From NCBI RefSeq assembly GCF_964204865.1, contig NC_135254.1, positions 23,684,001 through 23,748,000 on the forward strand: a stretch of 64,000 bases of DNA, written 5' to 3'. Shown here piece after piece: positions 561-46,100 of the stretch. A program made the translations under genes and the position numbers. This DNA is from Styela clava. Its lineage: Eukaryota. Positions within the stretch are counted from its first letter, which is position 1, and each line of letters begins with the position of its first letter. The notes under the pieces were generated by a model. It was not told the origin of the DNA. It was given only the letters and a program-made list of their open reading frames with translations, and did no database searches.

Positions 561-3500
561 CCAGTCCTTGCAAAGTTTCCCCAAAACGATGTCATCTGAA
601 GACTAACTTCTACTTCTGCCAATGTCGAACCAGTTGTTGACATTGGGACACCAAACACATATGCCAGTTCTTCAGCATGTCTAGCACCAGTTACCCAATC
701 AAATTGCTCATCAGGCGAATATGCTTCAAAATAGCAAGTAAGTATTGCTCGAATTTTAAAACGGTCAATAGTATACTATTCCCAAATGCAGCATCGAGTT
801 ATTTCATAGAATTCTTATTCTCTGGTTAGAGTACTAATCATGGTATTTAACATGCAATCATTTTTGAACAATTGCATGTGATTAAGGTTTGAAACTTGAA
901 TCAAATTTTTCGCAGTGGTTTTTTATGTTCTATCAAATGGTAGATATTTTGCAAAAAGGATATTTATGCCACATTTTCACTAGTACTGAAAATATATTAT
1001 GGAAATATTCTTTAAATCAACATTTACAAAAATTAATCTTAAATTAAATCATAATTATGTAATTACCCCATTTTGTGTTGGCTATCGCTTCTGATGGCCT
1101 TGGAGTAAATATATAAAGATAAACATCAGAATTAAATCCATCTTCATCTGAAGCGAGATTTGAAAAATTTACAGTTGGTGATAGAATATCAAAATCTCTT
1201 GTGGCATTTATAGCGAGCCATTTCCAGTCATCAGCATTGGTGGGAAGGGGTTCTGTCCAATCAACATAGTTGAAAAATACAGCATCTGCAATCTGTACAA
1301 ATTATAAATGTTATTGAAATAAAGGTTAATATTAAAAAAAATGGTAATTTTTTCCCACTATTTTCTGTTACTATTTCATCTTAAAAAATCAATCCGAACT
1401 CATACAGGACGCTGAAATCACTTTACTTATTCCATTTTATTTAACATTGATTCCTGAAAGTAATAGATACTCCAAAAAGTCAAATTTGGAAAAATTAGGA
1501 AATTAATAAGAAATTATTGGTTGATAATCGACATACAGAGAACAGAATTTAGAAACAAAGATCAATGCCATCAATTGTTAATTGAACCATGACATTGAAA
1601 TTGCCTGCTAGTTTTGAAGTTTGGTTAGAAACTACAAGCCTTTGTATCGAAAACAACCTATAAAAGACTTTGAAAAGTATGGCCATGATAAATATGAGCA
1701 TATTCGCAAAAATAAAACTTACTTTACTTGGATCTCTAAAATCCTTTGCGTGAAATTGTTCGATAAAATCGTTGAAATTATCTGCGTCCGTAACATTGTC
1801 AAGTAGTGAATAATATACCAGTGCATCAAATGAATTTAATCCTACAATGTAGTCGTATTTTCCGCGTAGTCTGGATATAATATCTTGGTCATTAGAAAGG
1901 TTCTGAGGTGTGGCAGGGAAAATTTCGCCATCAACGACTGGTCCGAATGAAAGTCCAATCGATGCTACCATTATTTCAGCGGCAGTTTTTTCTCGGATAC
2001 ATTCAACTGCGAGAGTGGTTGAGTATGTGGGACAAGCTAATCGTTCGAATAGAAATTGTGCATTCTGGCTGGGGTTGGTAACAAACCCAAAATCGGAAAA
2101 AGCACTTCCGCTTTCTGATATAATGCGGTGGAATAATTGTGGCTTGTCAAGATTGGTATGAGCAGATGCTGATAATGCATGGAGCTGTGTAGATGCCGCG
2201 CCCGAAGATTCACCAATTATTGTGATACGATTCTTGTCCCCGTCAAAGTTCTCTATGTTCTCATTTATCCATTGCAAGGCAGTAATCTGGTCGAGAAATC
2301 CAATGTTAGATGTTGATTTCCCATCACCTGTAATAATAATTTCGTGCTTTGTATTATTGTTGGCGCATTATTTTATGTTTTAGGTAGAAAACGTTTGTTA
2401 TGATTACGTTTACTATTTTGATACGATTCTTATTCGATATCGACACATCTGAATATTGTTTATTCGAGTTTTCGCCTTGAAATTTTGCTACCCATGATCT
2501 CTGATACACAAATTCGCTACAGGAGTGGTGACTCCTCTACGGCCCATGGGCCGGGGCCACGGCCCATTTAATTGGGCCACATGGGCCGTGGCCCATAGCT
2601 TGATGGGCCGCGGCCCCATCAGAAAAAATTCAATTATCTTAATAAAATTTTCAATTTTTACCAAATTGTCAATATTCGAACCAAAAAAATATACTCCTGT
2701 AGTATGTGTACCAGGTTAGGGTTAAGACAAAAAAATTCAGATTTTTTACATTATAGTTCTGTTATAAGTTCGGGTACTGTCTGTGTTAGCCAAGTGAATA
2801 GTTTCTTTACACAACTTCAAGGCCGAGGCCCAATTCGAAACAACTTGTCTACTCTACGTTATTTGAGACGACTATCAACTCCTTGTTCTTAGGGTTTTGT
2901 TTTTTATCAATTCTAAAAAAAACATCGTGTTTTAAAACAAGGGCTTGTTTTAAATCAATTTTTTTTTTGTACTTTTTGTATTTTTTATTGAAAACCCCCT
3001 GCATCGCCGCGAAACTACGCAGAAACGTTGCATTCTGGCAGCTGCACACGCAGCCGGAATTATAATTTCAAAAATGCAAGTAAAGATTCTTATTTTGACT
3101 TTTACTTCTATTGCGTACATTTATTGCCATGTTTGTATCTTCAATAAAGTCATAAGATTTTAACCGGAATGTTTATCCGAGATATCAGAGAGACATTTCG
3201 ATCAAAATCAAAACGAGAATATCGGTCTAAGACCGAAGACTTGTCGATCGAAAGTTAGGTATTTAACGTAATGGCTTATCGGTTGCGTCTTACTGCGCAA
3301 ACCACTGAACTACAGCTTGAGAAGGTGTGTATGAGCCTCTATCGACATTTATGGCGTTTTGAAGGATTTATTGCAAATAAGGAAGCGCTTGGCAATTTTT
3401 TACATTCATTTTTCTTCAACATATTTTATACAAAAAAATCAAATAGTACAGCCATTTAGAACGAAAAAGCAAAAAAAAAACTCGATTTAAAACAACTGTT

Positions 3501-4654
3501 TTGAAACAATTCTTTTTGAACAAATCCCTACTTGTTCTGTTTACCTTCTTCGACGTATTTGAAGTATGATAGTGTGTCATATTAAAATCTACCATGCAGC
3601 AATCGATATCAAACTTTCAAACACTTTGCTAGTTATTAATTCTTTATAATTTTGTTCATATTGGAACAAATGCACGTGGTCAAATTTGTATGCCCTTCTC
3701 GAATAATATATACAATATTATGTTGATACCCTGTCTGAGCGTGCATTTCGAGAACGTGCTGATATTGAGCCACATTCTCCCTCTTAATAGATTAGAAAAT
3801 CCTCCAGAATTTTGAGGGATACAATTGTTATTTTTATATCTGCTCTGTTTTGGTATCTGCATAAAGCTACTTCAAAATACAAGCGACCACTCGCGTGTAT
3901 TGTTTCACAATAAAACTATCGAAATAGTTAAGACACGTGAAACTCACCCGCACTTAGAAATCCCAAAGCCCCCAATCGGTAGTTCATTGTAACTACTATA
4001 ACATCACCGTACCATGCTAACTCGCCGTCGTAGAAGTCCGCAGACCCCCGCCTGTTAAAACAAGCCGATAGTGTTTAAAAATTCAGTAGTACGAACAAAT
4101 GATCACTTCTTTGATATAAGGCGATATAAATAATTATATGGTTCATTTAGGGCGCAGGATAGTTTTCAGGGGGAAAGGCAATTCAAATTAACCAGGCCCT
4201 ATTAATGCCAGCCTGGATCGTTCTACTGGTAATATACGCTGTTGACATACATGTATCCTCCTCCATGAATCCAAACCATTACAGCAAGGGGCTTCTCAGA
4301 AGATGTGTAGTTCTTGCGAGGAACGTAAATATTCAAATACAAACAATCTTCTTCTCCTAATACTTCACCGTTGATTGTGGATATTTGGGGGCACACTGAT
4401 TTGAAAGAACTGGCATCTAACGGATCCGACCATGTTTCGTGCGGGCTAGGAGGTCTCAATCTTCCTTCGCCAACAGGAGGTGCAGCATACGGAATTCCAA
4501 AATACTTCTCGATGGTCACTGAGGGTGGAAATTCTCGAACAAATCCTTCTATTACGCCATAATTTGTATTGCGACGAATTACTTCATTAGCTGCCAGGGA
4601 AAAGCTTATGTGCTTTACTAAAACACAAACTATGATGAAATAGGGTTGTAGCAT
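561..4654 (-). CDS. Secreted type-B carboxylesterase (COesterase family, bile-salt-activated-lipase-like triad), 3'-partial; exons 4654-4251, 4051-3948, 2327-1723, 1292-1067, 723-561
   Basis: Signal peptide [21 protein letters not shown]. Family motifs: [59 protein letters not shown] (Ser 2206-2208), [19 protein letters not shown] (Asp 1825-1827), [13 protein letters not shown] (His 677-679), FWGNFARTG. All introns are GT-AG with compatible phases (2,1,0,1,2). The last donor (555-560) leads off the window. Confidence 0.93.
2517..2885. repeat. GC-rich GGCCC/GGGCC palindrome cluster, probably the end of a non-autonomous DNA transposon
   Basis: Hairpin AGGAGTGGTGACTCCT. Repeated (G)GGCC(C) motifs at 2541-2617 and 2821-2831. 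CTACAGGAGT (2517) and ACTCCTGTAG (2693) are inverted. Confidence 0.45.
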
Positions 4655-4700
4655 GATGTCTGTTTAGATATGATATATTTGCATTATAATGGAAATACTT

Positions 4701-28100: not shown

Positions 28101-31100
28101 TTTCCTTGATTTTGACAGGTCGCAAAAAAAGGGATATTGGCATTCGTAGTCGAACAAAAAGAGGAACAGGTTCTATAGTAACAATAACAGAAGATTACAA
28201 AAATCAATTTTTACACTCTCATAATAATGCAAGATCGAATGCGTATCCACAAGGGTCAAACATTATACTAATGGAATGGAATGATGAAATTGCTGCCAAT
28301 GCAGAAAGTTATGCAGAGTAAGTGTGTAAATATGAAGAACTTGAATTCATTCATATCATGACAAAATGCAATCTTTATTTATTTGTATGAAAATTATATA
28401 TGAAAAATCATTTTTTAAAATCATTCTTTCCCTTTGTATACGAGGCTCTTGTTCTATATTTATACATGTGCTAAATTTTCAGAAGTATCTAAAGGACTGG
28501 GTTTGTATTTATCTCGAAGTTTATTTCATCCTATGAGATCTTTTGCCAGTTATATCTTTTGAATACATGGCTATGGTTTGTGGAGGAAGCCCCATCCTAA
28601 TCTACCATGTTAGCTTGAAACTTCCCACCCCCTGAGAAATCCAGCAATCTGCCATATTCAATCATTCGAAAGGTGTTTTAATTAGATGATATTATAATTA
28701 TCTCAATTTTGAGATTTCTATTTTCCTATTCTGTATTTTGGGCATTGTAACATATATTTGGCTAACTTGTTTTGACATTATTGCAACCTATTTTTTATGA
28801 ATGAATAAGAAATCAATTAGAGTGTGTTATTATTAGTAACTAAAACTTCTAACCATAATTAATGTAAGGAATAGGATTTCATTTTACTCATTCCATCAGG
28901 ATTTATCTTTTAACAATAAACTACCGTTGTGCAATTCCATATTCAGCCAGGTATAATACACACTTTCAAGGTCAAATTTTGTTTTCGGAATAAGGAGTTT
29001 TTTGTATTAACATAGAAAATGTCACAAAAAATATTAATTGATTTTTTATGCCTAATTACTATCCAATGTCTTTTAATTTCATTTGGAAGAGCCTGTTAGA
29101 AGCAGATCATGCTTGTTTCATAAAACATACCCAGTTCAACAAAAATTTAGCCTTAATAAAGATAGCGAAAGACATTTAATTAATACAATACAATTAATTA
29201 TCTCAAGTGTTAGCTGCAGTCATTGTCTCATCTAGGTTGTTTCTCTCGTTTTGCCAAATCGGCAAAACTTTAGGGACATAAATCACCAAGTGTCACCCAA
29301 ATTAATGACAGGCAAAAACAGGCTCTCACGTCGACCTTATGAGCTTTTAAAAAGAAAGTTGACCAATAATAGCACATCATGACTGGGATGTGACGCAACC
29401 CCCCGCTTGGGGTATTATGCTTAGGATTGAGAAATTTTCCTGATTCATGTGCTAAAATGCAAATGCGTATTATCTATTGATACATATTATACAAGGAGAA
29501 GCCTGGTTTCAGAACTAGTAGACAACCAATGTAATTCAGAAAGTGTAAAAAATCATTTACCCTTTTGTTATTTGTAAATAGGCAATGCACTTGGGGTCAT
29601 AGCACTTCCGCATCAAGAGTTACGAGTGACCATGGTCAACTAGGAGAAAATCTTGCAATATATACCAGAGGAAATTCCTTGAGCAATATTGCCAATGCTG
29701 CTGTTGTTGACTGGGCTGATGAAGTATGTGTGTTTTGCATGTTTTTTATATATTGTTGTTGATGCAATATACTTTATACTCTGTTTTGGAAATACTGTAT
29801 AGTATTGATGTCACACTTAATGTTAAATTGATTATTCTTTAGTCCCTATTAGTTGGGGTTACGTAAGACTAACTATTTTTTATTGCTCTATGTCTTTGTG
29901 CTGCATATAATGTGAGGATTGTGCAACAAGATTAATGATGACTATTTTATTTGATTCAAGAGTCTTACTGCACACTAACACAAATTTATTTCTATAATGT
30001 TTTATCTGTCCTCATCCAGGCAAAAAATATCATTCTTTAGTTAAGCATTTTGCTTTAAGAGTGAAGGAAATATCTACCTTTAGCTTTTTGATTCAGCGAA
30101 AAAAAGTAATGTTTTAATAATAGTACTTTAAGTATCCAAAATTTGGTAAAATGAAATTTGAGAAGAAAAATATTGCTTTGTCATCAGATTGAATTAACTG
30201 TATTTATTATCAGGCAATTGTGATAATGTTCAAAAATGTTCTGATAATATCATGACCCAAATGTGTATATACTGGAGTGAAAATTTCTTATTATACAAAA
30301 CTGCTTTTGTTGTATGCAATGGGTAGAAAGATAACATTATAACACTTCATAATGTATTCGCAATTAAAGATTCTAGAACATTAACATTAATACAGAAGCT
30401 GTTTTTCAAGTATTTGAGTGCTTATTGTATGATCTGTTTTATTGCATCAAAATCTTGGTTCATCTTTTTATCTTTTTATATTGCTTAATACTTGAAATAA
30501 TAAATATTATCAGCTTGATTTTCAATCTTTCTCACATTATATTTTTACTAAAATATGTTTTTATAATCCTACATTTTTAGGTAGCTTTCTACAATTTCAG
30601 CACTTTATCGTGTCAAGATACAGAAGTTTGTGGACATTATACACAAGTTATCTGGGATGACAGTTATGCTTTGGGCTGCGCCATTGCTGACTGCGAGGAA
30701 GCAGACATTGAAAATGATCCATTTACTGACGCAACGTATCAAGGAGCTTATTATATTGTTTGTCAATATGGACCAGGAGGAAATTTCAAGTTGGTATCTC
30801 TTGCTAAATTCAAATATATGCAAATATAGGAAATTTTTATTCTGGTTTGCATTGGATTGAATAAGTATTTCAAGAAGCTATTCATCGAATTTCACTTATA
30901 CTTTTGAATTGTTATACAACATTAATTGTTTAATTATTTTTAGCCCAAGCACTAATCCTCCATATGACGAAGGTGTTCCATGTTCAAACTGTCCTGCTGA
31001 GTTTCCAGCTTGTGATTCAACATATACTTTGTGTGCAAAGGAAACTGGTGGTGGTGGGGATGGTAATGGCGATGGAGGTAAAATTTTTATACTAAGATTG

Positions 31101-34100
31101 TTTTAAACTTCTGTATATTAAAATAAATCCTAGTCTCTAAGGTGGATAAATGGAGAATATGTGTGAGGCAAATTAAACAATTAAATAAGTTTGTTACTAA
31201 ATTAAATTTGAATTATTCTGAGTATGTCTTTGTTTATTTATGTTTGTTAGTTATAAGTAAAGTGAGAAGGTAATTTCCAATGTATGGTTTTCAAATCAGT
31301 GTTACCAATATTGTTTAGACTATGTTTAAGTATAAGAAGTAAGTGATTAGCAAAACTACTATAGTGTGCTATCTTTTATATATTATATTAATGATATATA
31401 TATTATTAATTTATATGAGTATTTCTCATCTTTTTTTGATTGCTTTTAGATGTTACCGCATCAGTGTGCTTCACCCCAACTATAACAAGCATTTCACCTC
31501 AATTTGGGACTGTTGATGATGTTATTACTATTGAAGGTATGTTCCACAAATGCCGATATTTGGTTAAAGGTTTATATTCGATTACTTTTTAATTTTATTT
31601 GAAAACAGTTTGCAAAAAATGTGGATTGCTGTTCTTTCAAACTGTTAATCCATTTAAAACCTTAAAAATGAACAACTACAAGCAATAGTCAAACAAGAAT
31701 TTAGATAAAATCATTGAGAAAGATATATCTTTTTTTTTATCTGAATTCCTCGTTCCAGGGCTAGGCTTTGTAAGTGATATGTTATCAGTTTTGTTTTGTT
31801 CGTTGTGCAACATCCATCCGCTCCATTGTATATGGACACAAATTTTGTCCATGTTCCAAAGTCGTCTTTTGCTATTGAGTTAAATTTATCTACCTGCAAA
31901 TTGTTGTGGAGAATATTTTCTTTAATGCAAAAAATCTCTTGTCACTTATCCCAAAAGTAACGCAAGTCAAATACTGTTCAAATTCCTGTTTAACTCCATA
32001 TCATTCTTAAGATTGTTGTCCAGTTCTAGTAACTTTTTATTGAAAGCAGACTATAAATTGGGTAATTAACTCTGATACATTCTCAAACATCACACATTAA
32101 ATCTGACTGCGGGTGGAAGAAACGATGGTATCATTGTCATTTATATAATTCCCAATCAGCTCAAATAAATCTTGTTCTTTCTGGGGTTGAGGGGAATTGT
32201 TTCATGTCATCTTCTATTCTATGCACACATTCTAAAATTGTATCATTCGATAATATACTGGCAATAGCCAACGCTTATTTATGAATCATGCACTGAAATC
32301 CAGCAATGCATGGATTTTTCTGTTTTATTCTGAGGTTAAATTTAATTAGGGAACTCAGTGCTACGAAATGTTTTCAGTATGCACACCTACTACTTTCCCC
32401 CAGTTTATTTTATTTTTTTCTAAGAATACGAGTTGTTCCGAGTTATAGAAATAGCATTTTTTCTTTGATTTAAGTAGGTCAGTAATCAGTAGTTTATTTT
32501 ACACATGTCGAAAATACACATTGTACATACAGAATAAAGAAAGATAAAAAAAATGCATTTCAGTGTGAAGAGAGATGCAATAAACCAGTGGTCTTACAAA
32601 ACAGGCATAGAATATCAACAGGGGATTTTCGTGCCTCCTGGTTAGAAACAAGATATTAAATACAAATACTTTAGCTATATATGATCTTATTTATATTTGG
32701 CATTGAAAAACTGGAGACATTCTTTTCAGGAACCGGATTTGGTGATGATAGTTGCAGAATATCTGTTGTTATTGGTGATGATATTTCGTGTACAGTTAAT
32801 TCATCAACAACAACCGCCATAACTTGTACTCCCAATCCTAATGCTGGTGCAAATATTGGTATTTCTTATGAGGTAATTGTTTTATACGATTATAAGATTT
32901 ATTCGCTATTGGTCATATTCAATACTTTGTATCTTTACGAAAGAAAAACTATGTGTATTGTTATAAATGCAATGTAACTTACCAAGCATAGCACATTTTA
33001 CTCTTATGACATGCATTTTTAATAGGTTGTATGCTTACAACACTAGTATTTTGTTAATTTGTGATCTATATTTGATAACAACGTTTTTTTGTACTAAACC
33101 AGTGTTGAAAATATGTTTTATACATATTACATTATTAAAGTTAAACTCTTTTTGGTGTATGAATTTCTTTTTATATAGATACTTAGTATTGAAAACTTGT
33201 TGTTATAGGTAATTGTCAATGTGTTGGGATATGGTGATGCTTTTGTTGATATACCCACAGATGCTGACAAAAGATTTGCTTTATTGCCCTCCATATCATC
33301 AATTACACCTGCTACTGGATCTTTAGCAGGAGGAACATACATTGATATATTAGGTGAGAGTGACAACATGCTATAAAACTCCTTTAAAACTATTTTTATG
33401 CTAAATTGTTTACTCAGTTATAAATATTTACCACCAGAATATAAAGCAGGTGCCCTAGTTTATGGAAAAACTCTGACATCTAACTAAATTGGTCTAAAAT
33501 TGAGATCATCGAATGAATGTAAAACTCCCAGTTGAAGTTCATCGAAATAATACCAATTTTAGTAAAACCTCCTATCTATATTAGTGTCACATTGGTTGAT
33601 CACATTGGGTTTCACGTTGCATTTTTGACCTGGGTAGGTGATTGACACATCCACTGTTATTGTTGCTATCAAATATGCCCAATTTGTTTTCTTATGATAA
33701 ATTCGAAATATTTGTATTTTTGTTATCATTTAGATTGCAATTACAAAAGTGCTCTAATATAATTTTCACTTATTTCAGGAACTGGTTTTATGGATGATGT
33801 TACAAGTGTTAACATTGGAGGGGACGATTGTGAAATAATCGGTCAAGATTATGTCAGCATCAATTGTAAAACTTCAAGTGGAAGTCAAGGATCTCAGACT
33901 GTTGGGTAAGTCAGTATCATTTGTTATATTTCCAATTTGATTGTAAAGTTAAAAACAAAATGGGATTTCTTATTCATCTTGCAAGATTAGAAATTCATCC
34001 TCAAGGTCACCCTGAGTCATTAGTTTGTTTTTAACACTTAACTAATTAGAGCATCTAATCTAATGAAAGCATCAAAACTATCATAAAAAAAACATTCTAC

Positions 34101-37100
34101 TGTATATATCTGTCTCAAGATGCTAACAATTATTTACATAAAGTTTTCTTCAAGTTAGGGATGGGCAATATAGAATACCGAATCCGGAGGATTCGAATCC
34201 CAAAGTATTCGAATCCAACAGAATCCGATAACAGGATTCGGTTTCCGCCTCTTTGGCACCATGCGTCGATTTTTGCATTTTGGGTTTCTAAATATCAATT
34301 AAAGACGAGCGTTTTTCTTGCGTGGAAATCTCTCTCGTTTAAATAGACTTGCGTCTGCTCGGAAAGAATCCGTAAAATCGGTAAACTTCAAACACTGTAA
34401 TCTCGATCGGTGTATTCTGGACAGGAAGTCTGCGAAGTACATCTCATTGCGAAGACTCGTTATTGCACCATTTTTGCGTTTTCGCCGTGCGCCAATTTTT
34501 GTATTTCGGGTTTGTAATTTATCAATTGAAGACGAGCGTTCTTTCTCACGTGGAAATTTCTCTTGTTCAATTAAACTTGTCTAATCCCAAAGAACCCGTA
34601 AAATCAGTAAACATCCAACACTGTAATCCAGGGTTGCCAGACCCCAGCGATAAAAAAGCCAAATCAAGACATAAAAAAAGCCAGAAAAAGCCAACAATTT
34701 TACTAAGTACAAAAGCGCCATGATTTGTCAGATTTTAAGCCCTTGGCAACGTACTGATGATAATGTAGAGCCATCAGTTCATTCAGTGAGGCACACAAAT
34801 AGAAAGTAAAGTTCCTATAGAACTGTAGAAAGTAAAATAAATATCAAGCGGACAGCATTATTTTACCATTCAATATATACAATACAGGGTGCCGCTTCAG
34901 TCTGTCAGTATGTAATATACAATATGTTTCTACTTAAACTTGTGCTACACCTCAACAATTCTCCCTATATCGTACTTTACTATTGAAAATTTTCTCACTT
35001 TCAAAATTTATAAACCATCAATTTTATTAAAAAATTATCTAACCCCCTGCCGCTCACAGGTGGACCACTGATATCTAATTCAGTAATTTTAACGTAGTTA
35101 ATCACATCGTTACTGCAATTGCAGAATTAAACTAAAGCTGAAAGCTCACATAAACCATATCAGGCATAAGGAAAATTGAGTTATACAACTATTTTTTGGA
35201 AACAGAACGTAAACTGACAAATAACACGCAAAACTATAAAAACGAGGAAATGTTTACAACCCTGCTGGATAATCTTTCTCCAAAATATCAGACACTTGTA
35301 AAAATTGTAGAGCATTTGAAGCTAAAAGACAAACTTAATTTGAATATGTTTAACCTTCTTGATCAAAAAAAATTTGGCACGATTCAAAGCACTAAACTGT
35401 TCACAGAATGCAGCTTGATTGGGTCAATGTTAAATAAACATTGAATGAAAAATACATGAAGATTTTTTAATATATCTTTTTAGCTTGTATATAATTTGTA
35501 GTTCATTGTTTTATATTGTTCTTTTCTGCAAGTTACAAAATAAATGATGACGGTAATCTATGTCTTTTATTGAGACTTTTCATAGTTGGCAACCCTAGTT
35601 GTTACACACTAACTATTGTATTTCATATAATTTTAATAATAGACACTAGAATAGACTTGAAAAAAGCCAAAAAAACGCCAAAAAGCCAAACGGAAATTCT
35701 AACGCCAAACACGTTTGAAAAAAGCCAAAATGGCAAATTTGGCGTTAAAAAAGCCAATATGGCAACCCTGCTGTAATCTCAATCGGCGTATTCTGGACAA
35801 GAAGTCGTGAAGTGCACTTACGACGAAGACCTGGTATTGCACCATTTTTTGCGTTTTCTTGCTTTGCTATCTAGCTAGGGTTTGATAATAATAATTATTT
35901 GTGCCGACTTACTGGCGATATTCCGATAATCTGATTGCAACAATCTTCAATTGTTTACAGGCGTGCCTCGCTTCATTTTACATTACTGCAAATGATTTTC
36001 CGCGACCGGCGAGTTTTCCACAGAAAATGATGCATGTAAACCAAAAGCCAGGCGTGAAATGTTATGACATTACTTGCGATTAATTTAAATCAAATAATAT
36101 TTAGGAATAATTTTATTACTTTTATTACACCAGTTTCGGAAATACAAAGTTATATCGCAAAACACGACAGTCTGTCGCATTTAAATTTCACTATCAAAAG
36201 ATTACATATTTTCCGGTCCGTTTTTATCGTTCAAGATAGACGCACGTTTGATCGAGTGTCTGTAGTAATTTTTTTTCGCCGATGAATTTAAAATAAAATG
36301 CCACATCTGGCGAATATAGTTACGTATTGAGTTTGAGTAGGGCCTAGACTGGGTAGATAATGATATGTAACGATAATAATAGAAAATGAATTCGTCTTTA
36401 GATGATATTAACTAATAACTAACTATGAAATCGCGTTTACGGGAACCTTGTTTTGTACGTCTTGGTCGCACGGAATAAAAAGTTGATTTCAATTGATAGT
36501 GGTTAAATTTAATATTTTACACCGGTCGCATAGGTTGCAGTGGCCACACGCTGGTCCTGCATCTAATTAATTCTCAGCGGGTTAGTTTTAGTACACTCGG
36601 CACTCCAACATTAATAATGATTTAATGCCGGTTTCATATCAATTTTTGTATTTAACCGCTTACTATTAAAGTGTTTGAAGCGTGTCTTAATTTAGCATTT
36701 CAGTATTAAGAGATTACATACATTTGGAACAATTGAGAGCAAAAATATTGTAGTATTCTTAGATTTAATTGTCCTGGGAAATGCCTGTTTAGTATCAAAT
36801 CAAATCCAATGTTAAGGACATTTCCAAATAAATAATACATTTATAGTAATACATTTACTATTTTTCTAAATCCAGCAATCAGGAAAATTCCCACTAGCCT
36901 ATTTGAATAAGTATGAAAATAGAATAGGATTCGGTATTCTGGATTCGATTCAACTATTCTAGAATATTCTAGAATAGTAAATTATTCTACCTTGCCCATC
37001 CCTACTTCAAGTCTACAATTTTGTATTTTTACCTAGTTAATAAATTGTTACATACACTGAAATTATTAGTACATATTTTTTTAACAACAATGGGTTACAG

Positions 37101-40100
37101 AACAAAATTGGCTACTGAAATTTTTTAATACAAAAGCTATGTATCTACACACATAACTGCTCACATCTGTGTTGTATAGAATTATATCTTTATCCAGAAC
37201 ATTCCTTTTTTAGGGTTGTTGTCAATTCATACCAAGCTGTTTGTTTGAGTTCCTGCGACTTTCTGTTTGATGTTTCTGTTACACCATCGGTTTCATCAAT
37301 TGAACCTAATTCTGTGTCATCAGAAAACACAGCTATACACATCACTGGAACTGGTTTTGATGGAGATTCATCGGATGTCATGATTGGTGTGTTTAATCAG
37401 TACATTATAATAAAAGTGTTTCAAATTTAAATTTAGTTGCATTCATATTGTCATATTCAGTCACATGTCTATTGTCTAATATTGTCACCTTAATTATGCT
37501 CCTGAATTTCGTATTTATAACATATGATACAAATTGTTTGGTAATTTCAAAGAAACTTTCCAAAAACATGACATTTCAGGTGATTCAACTTGCGTTATTG
37601 ATTCCATAAATGCAACTCACATTGAATGCACGATAGCAGAGTTGATTGCAGGAAATTTTGAAACAAAAGTTCACATTTCTCCTAAAGGATATGCTGACTT
37701 TGAGGCATCTAACATTGTCACTGGGTTAGTCATTTTTCACCTTATGACTAAGCATATGATGAAATGGATTGGTGTATAATATACATGAAAAAATAAATTA
37801 ACATTTATGAGAGCATTGTTTATATACAAACAGCATCAATCCGAGTGTTCATAAGGAAGGTTTCAGTCACATTTTTATTCAAATAAGGCCCTAGTCAAGT
37901 CAAGTTTATTTTTTCCAACCAGTAAAAAACAAAATACATTAAAAAAATATAAGAAAAAATGATATTTACATTACTGGGAAAAGGAAGTCGCGGGGAACCA
38001 AAACTTTGTTATTGAGCAGCGACACTCAAGGTTCTAACATCTAATGTTACAGATTGGGGAGGAAAGTTTCGAGTGATAAATACCATATGATTTTTGCAAA
38101 TTAGCCAACTAATATCAATTGTTATAGGTTATTACTAGAAATTACCGCGCATGAAATGTGCCTAGTGAGCAAACATTTACAGTTGTTGAACTTCTATACC
38201 TGGAAACTTTTTTTACAAGACCCAAAAGTGTAACACTTGTTTACATCATTCACATTTCCTATATCATTTTCATATTTAGGATTTTATATTGTAGTTACCG
38301 GTAGTAAGTATTTGTACCTTACGACTTCAGCAAAATGCTGTTGTACCTATTTCAAACCATCATTGAGAATTTAAGGAATTGTTTTTGATATTGAACAAAA
38401 TGAGCACACAGACAGAGATTGTCAATAAGTTACCGCTTATATGTTGTATATGATTGTTCCTGGGAAAAAAATTTTGCTTTTTGTTACTTCACTTACAGTA
38501 TGATTAGCATATAGCAGAACAATGATACTTCTTCTTGTATTGCATGCAGTGAATCTATTGCAACTTTGTCAGCAACATCAGGTAGTGTGTTTGGAGGATC
38601 TGTATTCACTATTGCCGGTCATGGATTCAACTCTGATGACCTGTCCGTAACATTTGATGGTTCTGATGCAGAGATTATGTTAAAAATGAATAAACTGGTG
38701 AGTTTCATGAATTATATAATCAAATTGTCAGGCTAAATATTGAATCATTATTTAGGCTTTGGTATTGCTCATCTAAACAATATATATATACAAATCGAAG
38801 ATCCCAGAAACAATTGTAAATAATAATATTCTGACCATCTCAAACACAGAGAGCCTGTTCCTTTTTGAGAATCCAAATTAATAGATTTTCAGCAAGTCTC
38901 AGACTGCCCTTCACAGAATTGTTTGTACAAAATTGTATTGGAAGCTGGGCAATCATTATTTTAGAGCTGAGAAACATCAGTGCTAGAAGCAGGCTGATTA
39001 AAATATACAAATCTATTTTTCCCATAATAAATACATATACGGTATATATTTTCTACCATTCGGCTGGGCTTTGAAATACTATTTAAACATACCCGCTTTG
39101 GTCAGCAAAGTATAGAATCATACTAAAATACCGAATATAGCACTTATTACATCTCTTGATTTATAATTGTCCTGAAGTGCTATTTTTATAACCCCAAATG
39201 ATTTACACTATAATTCTGTATATTATTGGAATAATATTATGAAAAAATTATGAAAAAATGAATATTATGAAATATTATGAAAAAATGTTTTCATAACTGT
39301 ACATGCCTGTACTGTACTATTTATTTTTAATTTAGCTTCTTGTCAAAACACCACCTGGTACTGCAGGAAATAAAGATGTTGTAATTGTATCAAATGGTGT
39401 GACTTATCCAACACTGCAATTTACTTATGATGCTGCTTTGACTCCGTTAGTCACAAGCATCTTGCCAACATCAGGTCAGTGAATAGTGTATTTGTGAAAA
39501 TAAATGAAGTGCTCTTATATATAAGAGGCTTGTGCTATCCCAGTTGATGCTTGTTCTGCAAGTCATGAGGTATCATGAAGAAAAATGGTACTCAACAAAC
39601 ATTTGGGTCACACCATGTACCTTTTTGATTGTGGTAGAAAAATATTTTTATTTCAAAATCATTTGTAGACATTCAATGTATGAAGTTAGCTATTAAGAAA
39701 TTGCTTTGCATTGCACAACTGGGGGGGGTATGTAAGTTCAAATTTTAAGGGAACTATGTGTAATATGTGAGATAAACTGTTATCTATTCACATACCTGAT
39801 ATAAACTGGAAACCGAATGACAGACCATGATTTTCGATTTTTTCCCCCATGACGAATATGAAAAATTCCATACTTTTCATAATTTCAACTTTTATATTCT
39901 AATATTCTAAATTCAACAGGTGGTGTTGGAACTACTGTCACTATAACTGGCACAATGTTGAACGCGACAGCATCAACTAATGAGGTAAAAATTGGGGATG
40001 CAATTTGTACAATAACTTCAGAAACTGCAACGGAAATTCAGTGTTCAACAGGAGAACCTTCAATTGGTGGAGAGAAAGAAATAACTGTATTTGTTGGGGG

Positions 40101-43100
40101 TCATGGAAACGCTGACACTACTTCTGTCACATTTACTTATGATATGGAAATTTCTTCATTTTCACCAGTGGAAGGTGACTGCAAATGTGGTTTTGTATTT
40201 AACACAATCCAATGTATTCAAGTATCGTATATCTTCTGCGTATCAAAAAATATTATGCTCTAACTGTTAATAACTGCAAACATTAGAAATATGCTCTCAA
40301 AGCAACAACTATGTCTGTTTTTTTTTTTAAATTATACTAATTTATTCAATTTTAGGAAGTTACGGTGGAGGAAATACAATTACAATTACTGGATCTGGAT
40401 TCTCTTCTGATGCAACCGTACATGTTGGATACAGTATATGTGAGGTTGATAGTGTTGTATATGGAAGTATATCTTGTACTTTAGAAGAGAGTAAGTTGAC
40501 TTAAATATTGTTTTGTTTTGTGAATAGTTTATATGTAATTATTATACAATCAATGAAGGTTGTATTGTATTAAATTTATGTTTGTGACATGACAAAGTTG
40601 ATATATGCAGTGTTATAATATCGTTAAAGTGATGTTTTATCAGTTTTATCAAACTAAGTTACCGATAACTTGCCACAGCATATGACAAGACACTTTTATA
40701 TTTATAGAGTATGGCAAAAATCTGTTACACTTATTCTTATTTATATGCAATCATATATCCCATAAAGCTTCTGCTAATATTGTATGAAAGTATAAAATTA
40801 TTATTACTATTGTAGCCCCATCACTTGTTGCCAGAGATGATGCAATCGAAAGTTTTGAAGTACTTCTAAATAGCTTTGATATCACTGTATTTGATTCTCT
40901 TCCACGAGATGACTATCAAGTGATTGGACAATATGCCTCGGATTGTATTGTGAGTCAGCAAATATTTTTAATGTGAACAATTAGGAAACAGTGTTCTAGA
41001 AATTGTAATAGTAAAATTGTTAATTGAATTGTAATTGTTGTTAGAGATGATTGCGTGTTCTTAAAAATTGGTTTTTGCTCTTGTGATATATTACAGACTC
41101 GTACATCTCCCAGATCCATGAGTAATTGAGAATCTCTTGTTTACCAGTTCTAGTAAACTTTTTTAAAATCCAACTTTTTTATTAGTAAATATTGTATTGA
41201 ATGACTAAACAAATTTAGGTTTATTGGAAGTTTATAATTATTTTTATATTAAATTAAATCGTCAGAGAGCCAATGAAGTTTTCTAATTTTTACTAGTCTC
41301 TATTGATATATTTTCAATTGATGAGGTAATTCAATATCAGAATCATTAACAATAATTTTTGAAATTTTGTTCTCAGAATTGTGATACATTGATTTCAAAT
41401 TTGCCAACGTATAGAATAGGAAACGGAGATGCATTGGTGAATCCTGTCAGTTACAATCAAATAATGACTAATGGTGCAGCTCAAATTTCTGTATGGGAGC
41501 CAGTACCCCCATCAGATAGTAAGAATATAAATTGTATTGTTTAAATGGTCTCGTTAAAGAGTCAAATGATATTAAATGGTAAAATAAATAATAGGTAAAT
41601 ATGAAGTCAAAGAATATGTTAGTTATAAATGAAAAATAATTTTTATTACCGGTTCATTAATTTAATTGCAATGTATGTATTCCAGTTTACGACACAATCC
41701 TATTGATATCTAAAAATATTTTTCCTATTTCAGTACTTGTCCAATAAGAATTAATAATGAAGCCACTGTAACTTTGTAAAACTGTATCTAAACAAGATTT
41801 AACAGTTCATTCTACTTTTGTTCGAGTTTTTATTGTGGTATGTCATGTATCATTTCAGGTTATGTATGTTTGGGAAGTTTCATTGTGACTGGTACGTCCC
41901 CTCCCGAACTGGATGCAACCGCTTGCATTCATTATATGTTAGTTGAAGAAAGCACGCCGACACTTGAGCTTGATGCAACAACACTTTATATATGGAGTAT
42001 TACAGATAGTCCTTTTGTTTTGTACACTGCTTCATCTACTCCTCCAACTGTCTATAAACTAAAAGGTACTGCTATCATACTTGCTTGCAAAGCTTATGGG
42101 TGCAGCAAATCGCTGCTTTTCATGTAATACTATACATCTGGTGGAAAAGATTATGCACTGTCTTACATTTGTTATTGTATTATTTCTATGGCGTGCCAAT
42201 CATATTCCTAAACGCAAAGATTTTGTAAAGAGATAATATACATTCTGCATCAAGACAAACATTATTCTTTTTGTGCTTATATTTTAAAACATTTTTGATA
42301 CTCTATATCAGGGGTCACCAAACTTTTTTGACCGCAGGCCGGGTTTGACTCAAACTGTGTTGAAACGGGCCGGACAAATATTTTTGTCAATGCAATACAA
42401 TAAATTCACAAATGTTTGGAAATCCATTCAATTTATTCAACAATAAATATAATCTACATTTCTGAAGACTTGAATATTTAGTTCTATCTCTATCGCAGAA
42501 TATATAAGTATACTAAGTATATTTTGATTTTCCAGCAAAAAAATCATACACAAAACATAAACAATGAACACACAGAAAATTGGGAAAATCGGGGAAACCT
42601 GAAAAACCTTTATAAAGGTTTAATAGATCGAGAACATCCTAGTAAAACAATTATACAAGATTTCTATATCTATTCAACTATCCTGAGTTTAGCTGTTAGC
42701 AAAACATTGCTGTCATAAATTAGGAATGTTGAAAAACCCACTTTTTCGCGCCAAAAATATGTACGCATCACGTCTGCTATTTACCGTTACGCCGCGTTGG
42801 AATACCGCTCATATAAACGACTACGGACTGCCTGCGGTACCTTGGAATTCCATGAAATTTTGACATAATTTAGATAAAATAAACAACTATTATCTGGTTT
42901 TTGATTTTTTTCATTAGCGCATGAATTTCAAGTTACCGGTATACGTAGTGCAAATTTTGATATTGTCTATGGACACCAATAAAATTTATGTGAACTGTGT
43001 ATTTCCTTCCTAACTTGATACTTTTTATGAAGTTTGTTCTATCAGAACATCTTTAATTATTACCCACAATGAACCACTGTCAAACTAACATGCACAACTC

Positions 43101-46100
43101 CAGCGTTTATTTGCGACGATAAAATCCTGAAATAGTCTCAATATTCCCTAGATGTGACGCAGATCGAAAGATTAGAGATGTGTTCTTTTTTCATATTTAT
43201 TACAGTTATTATCCAAAAAGTAATACGATCCTTATGAAAAAAATGGCATGTCGGGCGGTACTAAAATTCCGATATCTTCGTTGTTTCTAGACCGTTTTTA
43301 AAAAACTTGTCTTCTTATTTTCACTCAGATCTATCCACTGGCGCAGTTTTTATTTAAATCGGATGAACTTTAATTTGTTTGTAACATACCCACATGAATA
43401 TCCGCACTTAGGCAAAACAAATGTTAGTCTGAAATTGCAGCAGTATGCGAGGAATCACAGTACTGTTAGCGCAACATGCACATTCGAGGTTCATTTCAGC
43501 ACAAGAAACGTAAACAGTTTCGTCGAAAGCACGCGCCACAAGTATACGAGTGCACCTTTCGCGGAAAACGTTTCGCACCGGTAGATAATTTTAGTCTATT
43601 TTGTCACAGCTATTTCTAGACTTATTTTTCATTACTACTATTAAAACTACAACTCTTAAGGAGGCAAATGATGATTTACTTATTTGATTCATACTTAAAT
43701 TTTCCTAACGCAACCAAAAACTAACGAATAGCATTCAAAATCGCAAAAATGAACTACTGTTTACAACCAAGACTAAAAATTCAAGGTGACAAAAGTGTCT
43801 GAGCGGATGCGAAAAGACATATTATTATGTCACTTTTTTGCATCTTGCTGATTGGCCCTTAATATCAAATGAATAAGGAAGACAATGCTCGGGAAAATTG
43901 CCATTGGAAAAAAATTTTGCCTTTTTTGTGTGTTATTGCGGGCCGGATAAAATTACGCCGCGGGCCGTTGTTTGGTGACCCCTGCTCTATATCTTCCCCT
44001 CTTCTTTATATCGTCTATGGCATGATATGGAATTTTATCTATTATATGAAACAATTTTAAACCACAAAATCGATAAATTGACCACATAGTTACTTTATTA
44101 GTTTTTGATTTTAACTTTTATCAAATCTATATTATGTTCAATGAAATTGATTTATCAGTATCATTTACTGAAGCTCATTGATGAGGAATTAGTTTAAAAT
44201 GAGTTCAATTTATTCAATCGAAACATTTTTTAAATACCTGCATATTTAAATACCCTTATTTTGGAGTTTTTTTTAAATAAATTAATATTTTTCTTGTTAT
44301 TATAAATGTTTTCTGCCGTTTTCATCTGTTTAATACAATAGTTTACATTCTTTTATTTAAAATTTCAAGATATGTCACAAGCTATGTCAAATATGCAATA
44401 CCCCATAACAATTGACAATGATGGGACTGAAGTTATGTCTGCAACAAATTTCACTTTCAAATCTGCATTAACTCCTGTTGTAACAAGTGTGACACCTACA
44501 CGGGGTGGGACAGGAGGAGGAACTCCAATCACCATTACTGGAACTGGTTTCAGTGTAGATACTGCAGATGTAAGTTGGAGTAAAACTTTGAATTCTAAAT
44601 ATCCATGGTGTATAATTGAGACATAGAATGGAATAAACTTATAAACTTAAAAACCCACTCAAATAGTGGAAAACCTTACTCAAATTGTTATTTTCAGCTA
44701 TTTATAAATGATTTAGGATCTTCACCACAGAAAACTGTGAAAAATTGGCATATTACAATGCAATCTTCTTAAAATAGGTTTGTAAGATGTAAAGTTGCTG
44801 AAATAACATTAATATAAATTTTGGACTAATCTGTACACAAATAAACTATTTGTGGCATCAAAAATTAGGTATCCCTCTCAAAGTTCGAATTTTCCTATTT
44901 ATCCTAAAATATTAAATCAGTTCTATTTATGAATGCAGAATTTGTGGAAATATTTATGTCACTTATGAAGTTCAAACTAATTCATTTCAACCAATACTTA
45001 AAATTCGTTTCAGGTTTCTGTCACTATTGGTGGAGTCGTATGTGATGTGACATCTACTTCACTGACAACAATTGAATGTACAACCAATTCTAGGAATGGC
45101 TCCATAGAAACTGCAGTTATTGTAAATATCGCTGGCAAGGGTCAGTCACTGGATATAGGAGCCAAGTTTTACTACATTGGTAAGATAGCAATAACAACAT
45201 ATCACTAGATTGTCTGGATATATCGCCACTATTGTAACAACTCGAGGTAGAAACTCGATCAAACTTGAAATATTTATGAGATCTGATAGATACAAAAAAT
45301 CAATTTATCAATTTAATGCCTTAAAATCTTATTTGAATTTAAGCAATGACATTTTATCACAAAGAAAGCAGCTAATGATTGTAGGGTGCACTTATTAGAG
45401 GCATTGTTGATAGTATTATGTTAAAATGTCAAGGCAATCAGCTTTTTTATGATTTTCATTGAATAAAACAGGGTGACCCAAAAATACATAACCCATACAT
45501 TTTGTTAGATATTTGTACAAACCCTGGAACATGTATAATAGTACCCCAAAGTTTTATTAATTGAGGACGCTTCGCACAGAAGTAATGTTTTTTTTAGAAT
45601 ATTTTACAAACGTCCTGGCTCCTGCGTTTTTCTTTTAGGTCACCCTGTATATTTGATATCGTTTTTTTTTATCAATTTATATTTTAAATATCTTATATAA
45701 TATTTTGTTTCTTTAGATCTTTGGTCATCAATTTGGACATGGGGTGGAAGAGGAATACCTGGTGATGATACTTTTATTGTCATACCTGCTGGTATGGAAA
45801 TCATGATTGACGAGAACACTGCCATTCTAAAGATGCTTTTAATTCAAGGAGGAAAAGTATTTTTTGATGAAGCAGATATCGAACTCAATGCAAAGAATAT
45901 ACTTATTACAGATGGAGGAGTTTTGCAGGTACTTTGACTGACATTGTGCACAAATACTGTTTACAAACATGGAAAAATCTTAACCAATCATTAGTCGCTG
46001 ACATTTATTTGGGTAGGATTCATCTTCAGATAAATAGAAATAAAAATGGGGCCAGCCAGGTACTGATTAAAATAAATTATAGCAAGTATTTTCTTCATAG

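Follow-up and report, generated by a model that had tools for sequence, protein, structure and literature searches.

The fibrocystin-L gene examined here raises the question of what a stretch of 161 residues is doing inside one of its TIG domains, where it came from and what it might add to the protein. The gene lies on the plus strand of the window, by which we mean the whole stretch of 64,000 nucleotides analysed (G000:C5:23684001-23748000; 32% GC) from the 377-Mb genome of Styela clava. It has many exons, ordered as in the fibrocystin-L genes of fish, shark, gastropod and bryozoan, and its TIG array, first G8 domain, beta-helix and second G8 domain are colinear with named fibrocystin-L (PKHD1L1) orthologues, an order kept across vertebrates and invertebrates. 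Over 419 residues around the insert site, identity to the gastropod and fish proteins is 46-49%. The N-terminal strands of the second-last TIG are encoded by an exon at 40356..40490 (plus strand; Pfam TIG 32.9 bits), which ends in phase 1 and is placed by orthologue alignment and by an RNA length check. The last two strands of the same TIG, together with the start of the last one, are encoded by an exon at 44370..44569 (plus strand; Pfam TIG 32.1 bits), which aligns to orthologues when the insert is left out; the rest of the last TIG (45014-45179) and the first G8 exon (from 45717) follow at 45014..45926 on the plus strand. Human PKHD1L1 is described as having 14 IPT domains, and because IPT14 adjoins the TMEM2-like region (PMC11043200), the split TIG is the equivalent of IPT13.

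An earlier note, made from the sequence alone, had read three exons totalling 483 nt inside this single TIG, and splice sites, reading frame and the transcript contigs of two studies bear it out. Insert exon 1 (40816..40949, 134 nt, phase 1 to 0) encodes a linker and what reads as the first, degenerate beta-tripod repeat; it aligns from position 75 of the family profile onward. The end of repeat 1 and the start of repeat 2, including a W-x-P-x-P-P motif, are encoded by exon 2 (41377..41518, 142 nt, phase 0 to 1), and the end of repeat 2 and repeat 3 by exon 3 (41859..42065, 207 nt, phase 1 to 1). All three lie on the plus strand, have AG/GT ends and add up (134+142+207) to 483 nt or 161 residues, with junction phases 1-0-1-1. 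Both peptides quoted in the note are present, the longer one spanning the junction between exons 2 and 3. Spliced together with the flanking exons, the insert lies within a 712-residue stop-free stretch that runs from the upstream TIGs to G8. The inserted peptide is acidic (20 D+E versus 5 K+R), and the GC and GC3 of its exons equal those of the host.

Transcript support comes from Logan contigs labelled 'RNA?', whose runs are guessed to be RNA yet skip GT-AG introns. In X3 record 8 (5,501 nt) and X5 record 10, segments 39917-40172 and 41859-42062 are separated by exactly 413 nt, which is the predicted sum (2+135+134+142) of an exon remainder, exon 40356-40490 and insert exons 1 and 2; insert exon 1 thus falls within the 413-nt span of two RNA contigs. 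The first of these contigs then continues for exactly 368 nt to the first G8 exon, matching the gene model. Both outer junctions had been proposed as targets for a search in reads. The downstream one was found directly, with X8 record 15 joining 42062 to 44367, that is, the 42065/44370 junction shifted by three shared letters, which links insert exon 3 to the exon of the last two TIG strands. The upstream one, 40490/40816, is supported in its length by the X3 and X5 contigs and not by a joint among those listed, and the same holds for the internal junctions 40949/41377 and 41518/41859. Insert exon 3 is present in RNA contigs of X3, X5 and X8, and among the matches listed the insert is seen in three of four runs, from two studies, the X1 pieces here not being among them. 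No skipping isoform occurs among the transcript matches listed.

Once the module is removed, 322 residues of the region align to 322 residues in proteins of three fish (Megalops, Triplophysa and Brachionichthys) and one gastropod (Batillaria). Fifteen orthologue rows were returned, of which 13 span the loop, the remaining two being one that begins inside it and one aligned to another TIG. The loop is short in 12 of these 13; the Gambusia model has about 40 extra residues there, which are non-homologous to the module. The short loop that the earlier note had ascribed to human PKHD1L1 is seen in named fish, shark, snail and bryozoan orthologues, which here stand in for the human protein, and exon order and orthologue alignment agree with its placement of the insert within one TIG, just N-terminal of the last TIG and the first G8 domain. 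Two more fibrocystin-L genes reside in the same genome, on C1 (about 5.42-5.46 Mb, plus strand) and C13 (about 14.08-14.13 Mb, minus strand). In both the second-last TIG is intact, with all cysteines and a short loop, and a phase-1 intron lies at exactly the insert site, the gaps measuring 675 and 385 nt; no tripod signal was found in either (best 3.9 bits among 1,678 ORFs). That the insert was acquired, as had been proposed, is borne out by its absence in the orthologues and both paralogues. Furthermore, the intron that both paralogues have in this position and phase shows that the module was placed, as a phase 1-1 cassette, into an intron that already existed; phase 1 at both 40490 and 42065, together with the intron at the site in the paralogues, is the configuration of class 1-1 shuffled modules. 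The host TIG of the window gene has lost one cysteine pair that is kept in all aligned outgroups and in both paralogues.

The module has also left traces in other species. Insert exon 3, searched exhaustively against 1.84 billion representatives, returned five matches, two of them true homologues, the Logan contigs P0001 (51%) and P0003 (44%), both of which stop at the same exon end as insert exon 3. Judged from these contigs, homologues of this exon appear in two other species at 43-51% identity. In P0006, from the cluster of P0003 (44%), the module exon is followed directly by the TIG exon that also follows it here, so the module occupies this position in at least one other species. Compared with that species, identity in the module (23/53) lies between that in the tail of the split TIG (9/32) and that in the last TIG (24/34), and the downstream cysteine of the host TIG is absent in P0006 as well.

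The likely relatives of the module are the beta-tripod domains, which form the N-terminal part of PF06101 (Vps62/DUF946, IPR009291) and have been solved in GNIP1Aa/Mpf3Aa1 of Chromobacterium piscinae (PDB 6FBM); they occur also in plant VPS13M. The name Vps62 is itself reported as a spurious alignment link (PMC7613979), so it permits no inference on vacuolar sorting for the module. We assembled a family sample by motif from 86 prokaryotic and 26 viral stretches, yielding 108 usable domains and, after removal of near copies, 79 (57 prokaryotic and 22 viral). Ten of ten sampled members pass the Pfam Vps62 (PF06101) cut-off, one narrowly; a 50-sequence family alignment finds only PDB 6FBM (GNIP1Aa, E 8e-39), and the model of one family member (pLDDT 91) compares to 6FBM with a TM of 0.80. 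Against the 57-domain prokaryotic profile the spliced module scores 50-55 bits, the maximum of 1,000 shuffles being 3.8, and much of the 50 bits is there by construction, since family members were collected by a motif that resembles the module. When the 15 residues of this motif are masked, the module still scores 14.2 bits against a shuffle maximum of 3.1, both flanks aligning in the right order. After masking, the scores are modest: 14-16 bits remain with the prokaryotic profile or the pooled one, and the viral profile gives about 1 bit. On the pooled profile, unrelated G8 fragments score up to 10.8 bits, which is as much as either flank alone. When the window ORFs are ranked by profile, the best of 1,500 is insert exon 3 (29.0 bits) and the second is exon 2 (18.4 bits). 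In hhalign, exon 3 aligns to the family at 92% over 32 columns. Single insert exons (44-68 residues each), scanned exon by exon, matched nothing in Pfam, and the 68-residue model of exon 3, which is part of the module, matched no fold by Foldseek and VIA. Repeats 1 and 2 are aligned by the HMM; repeat 3, the weakest, lies outside the HMM alignment and was aligned by MAFFT to compact members, and in the exon-3 model it forms a hairpin (pLDDT about 90). We regard homology of the insert to the Vps62/DUF946 (PF06101, beta-tripod) domains as highly probable, and the resemblance first noticed by eye in its peptides has stood up to the profile scores, the masked score and the ORF ranking.

The module shares with the beta-tripod a build of three repeats in about 160 residues, with P-x-x-Y, W-x-P-x-P-P, Y-x-x-L-G, P and C-[VI] in this order, and a mobile, accessory character, insertion into loops of larger proteins being known there too (VPS13M). 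It departs from it in one extra residue after PP, found also in three metagenome members, and in its setting inside an Ig-like fold of an animal extracellular protein, instead of next to a pore-forming domain or within a cytosolic lipid bridge. A third difference concerns D-x-G-[ST]-G-x3-D, the recognition sequence given as the defining mark of the beta-tripod in GNIP1Aa (PMC8624791): none of the three repeats of the module holds a strict or loose match, and the motif occurs in 32 of 57 prokaryotic domains (40 loose) and in 0 of 22 viral ones (1 loose). The module would then be a divergent tripod homologue without the known binding loops and not a canonical GNIP1Aa-type member, and because these recognition loops are missing its ligand is probably a different one.

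The tripod is not the only addition to this gene. It stands beside a CAP domain, another acquired module, encoded upstream of it by four exons at 28119..31077 (plus strand, phase 1 at both ends), so the earlier note was right to count it as a second added module. The CAP exon at 30584-30790 scores 25.3 bits with Pfam CAP, over the cut-off, and lies within a 5,885-nt RNA contig; the CAP insert sits between two TIG-region segments, after two basic cleavage-like sites. Outside the window, exons of consistent frame run on from the last Ig-like domain to an EGF-like segment, ZP-N and ZP-C (Pfam 17.6 bits for ZP-N, below the cut-off; 33.6 and 31 bits for ZP-C, above it). This EGF-ZP end, with a basic cleavage-like site, lies just past the window at L144:8080-9894 and L145:214-1823. 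No membrane helix was found in the 30 kb downstream of the window gene, and no CAP or ZP match in the C1 and C13 paralogues, both of which end in a C-terminal membrane helix; that of C1 is preceded by apparent extra Ig-like segments. The window gene thus appears to end in EGF-ZP instead of a membrane helix, the putative link from the fibrocystin exons to those of ZP being one of frame consistency. A fibrocystin-L-ZP fusion would be a finding in itself. The window copy consequently differs from other fibrocystin-L in the 161-residue insert of the IPT13 equivalent, the CAP insert, the lost cysteine pair and the apparent EGF-ZP end.

Tunicate fibrocystin-like proteins redeployed in extracellular matrix are described in Oikopleura dioica. 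One of them, the oikosin oik14, probably has no membrane helix and forms part of the house (PMC3390340), and expression in the house epithelium is described for four of the eight fibrocystin genes (bioRxiv 10.64898/2026.03.31.715263; PMC3390340). Additions of tripod, CAP or ZP are not mentioned in those descriptions. If the ZP end is confirmed, the Styela paralogue becomes a candidate structural and recognition component of the tunicate matrix.

The history of the gene may be reconstructed in a few steps. The ancestral TIG had a phase-1 intron here, and a phase-1-flanked insert, absent in outgroups, is now spliced in frame; how the insert is spliced, where it sits, its phase and its absence from relatives are all observed. 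Exon shuffling would have brought the phase 1-1 cassette into the intron, the most likely source being a tripod gene that the lineage already carried. At least one other species would have split off after this step, and the host TIG would subsequently have lost one cysteine pair. Because its last two strands follow in register, this TIG presumably still closes around the insert. The module would have kept the three-repeat core and exchanged three acidic-glycine loops for tight turns, for which reason a GNIP1Aa-type site is probably not used. Finally, the duplicate fibrocystin-L may have been released from a membrane-anchored role and have gathered modules by exon shuffling, the two plain paralogues staying anchored. 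The CAP insert and the frame-consistent EGF-ZP end, with no membrane helix found, suggest that it became a matrix protein of tunic or mucus that is secreted, may form polymers and bears recognition modules. As to the module itself, we favour with moderate confidence a likely beta-tripod that folds alone in the loop of the second-last TIG, projects from the rod and likely adds a recognition site for a ligand of surface or matrix.

The main rival of this recognition-site reading is a purely structural role, in which a real tripod fold would stiffen, kink or cross-link the rod by G8, or pair with a neighbouring chain, and would have no outside ligand. Such a role would fit the loss of all three recognition loops, the loss from the host TIG of a cysteine pair that outgroups and paralogues keep, and the acidity of the module. 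However, the 22 viral domains have no copy of the motif either, so its loss need not equal a loss of binding, and tripods elsewhere are described as accessory domains for target recognition (PMC8624791, PMC10683392). We consider a purely structural role unlikely, and retain the recognition site as the preferred reading.

A second alternative concerns the donor. The fibrocystin intron might have received the module directly from a bacterium or giant virus, the module then being exonised in place and later acquiring two internal introns, with no resident donor gene. No second tripod copy or donor gene was found in the genome, which would agree with this, but the searches were weak, bacterial queries missing even the module itself, and count for little. 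Most descriptions of the family concern plants, fungi and bacteria, and plants and fungi are said to supply most of its roughly 6,000 InterPro members (PMC10683392), and horizontal acquisitions are documented in tunicates (PMC13390645). The loss of the loops, moreover, is common to the module and the giant-virus members. On the other hand, the nearest microbial match reaches just 36.7 bits, GC and GC3 are those of the host, and in the tree the module sits on a long branch (2.07) with no starred support, among rows that include no animals, plants or fungi. The phase 1-1 symmetry, seen also in the CAP insert, is typical of ordinary animal exon shuffling and fits it here. A direct microbial origin seems to us quite improbable on this balance, and a lineage-resident tripod gene the likelier source. 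If the donor was microbial after all, this would be a transfer at the level of the domain, inside a conserved animal gene, of the kind that whole-gene screens miss; the Ciona screen for transferred genes, which works by whole-protein best hits, would be one such, and the parts of it that were searched do not mention the domain (PMC13390645). We also entertain, as a doubtful extension, that a toxin-type targeting domain of microbial or giant-virus descent, the CAP domain and the ZP tail together make the fibrocystin-L duplicate a secreted filament in the tunic or the feeding mucus, with microbes or polysaccharide as the targets that it recognises; a surface protein of hair cells and epithelia would then have been turned into a secreted filament.

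The remaining reading, a tolerated and decaying passenger or a chance likeness to Vps62, could appeal to weak per-exon signals, the long branch and the degenerate first repeat, but is already largely refuted and extremely unlikely given a frame open over 483 nt, transcripts from two studies, homologues of 43-51% identity that stop at this exon end in two further species, and a colinear profile match on either side of the motif.

The literature search returned no report of a tripod in fibrocystin-L. The parts are known and their combination is new, making this a real, new domain architecture. It is a clear-cut example, present in transcripts, of one domain set within the Ig-like fold of a TIG, and two paralogues of the same genome preserve the state before the insertion (intron and cysteines). 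A probable beta-tripod, so far considered in connection with fungi, plant VPS13 and bacterial insect toxins, is thereby placed in an extracellular protein of an animal. That the IPT13 loop by G8 tolerates a whole domain also bears on the build of the poorly understood fibrocystin rod.

Several neighbouring features deserve mention. The intron after the module holds a 1.7-kb non-coding element (42309..43984, no strand assigned), unrelated to the module, recognised from the sequence by 15-bp terminal inverted repeats and an 8-bp target-site duplication and with high multi-copy read depth; in these terminal features it is hAT-like. A long intron stretch at 33400-37200 of the window consists of several high-copy repeats (read depth 100-500). 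At 1047-4663, on the minus strand and divergent from the fibrocystin gene, lies a gene that by eye resembles carboxylesterases/cholinesterases (GESSG motif). Elsewhere in the genome (G000:C9:16178395-16181664), an intron-bearing GH6 domain over the Pfam cut-off follows a hydrophobic stretch, as in tunicate cellulose synthase; among animals, cellulose synthase and GH6 genes are tied to tunicates (PMC6523144, PMC7464555), in keeping with a tunicate host. In a short tree the host falls outside the vertebrates. Within the family sample, the giant-virus tripods (L088-L113, many named GVMAG), with DxG[ST]GxxxD loops in 0 of 22, form their own group in the tree, and several giant-virus contigs carry two tripod genes each. 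A recurrent and closely conserved tripod-domain protein is also present in marine group II (Poseidoniales) archaea (L005, L020, L021, L030 and others).
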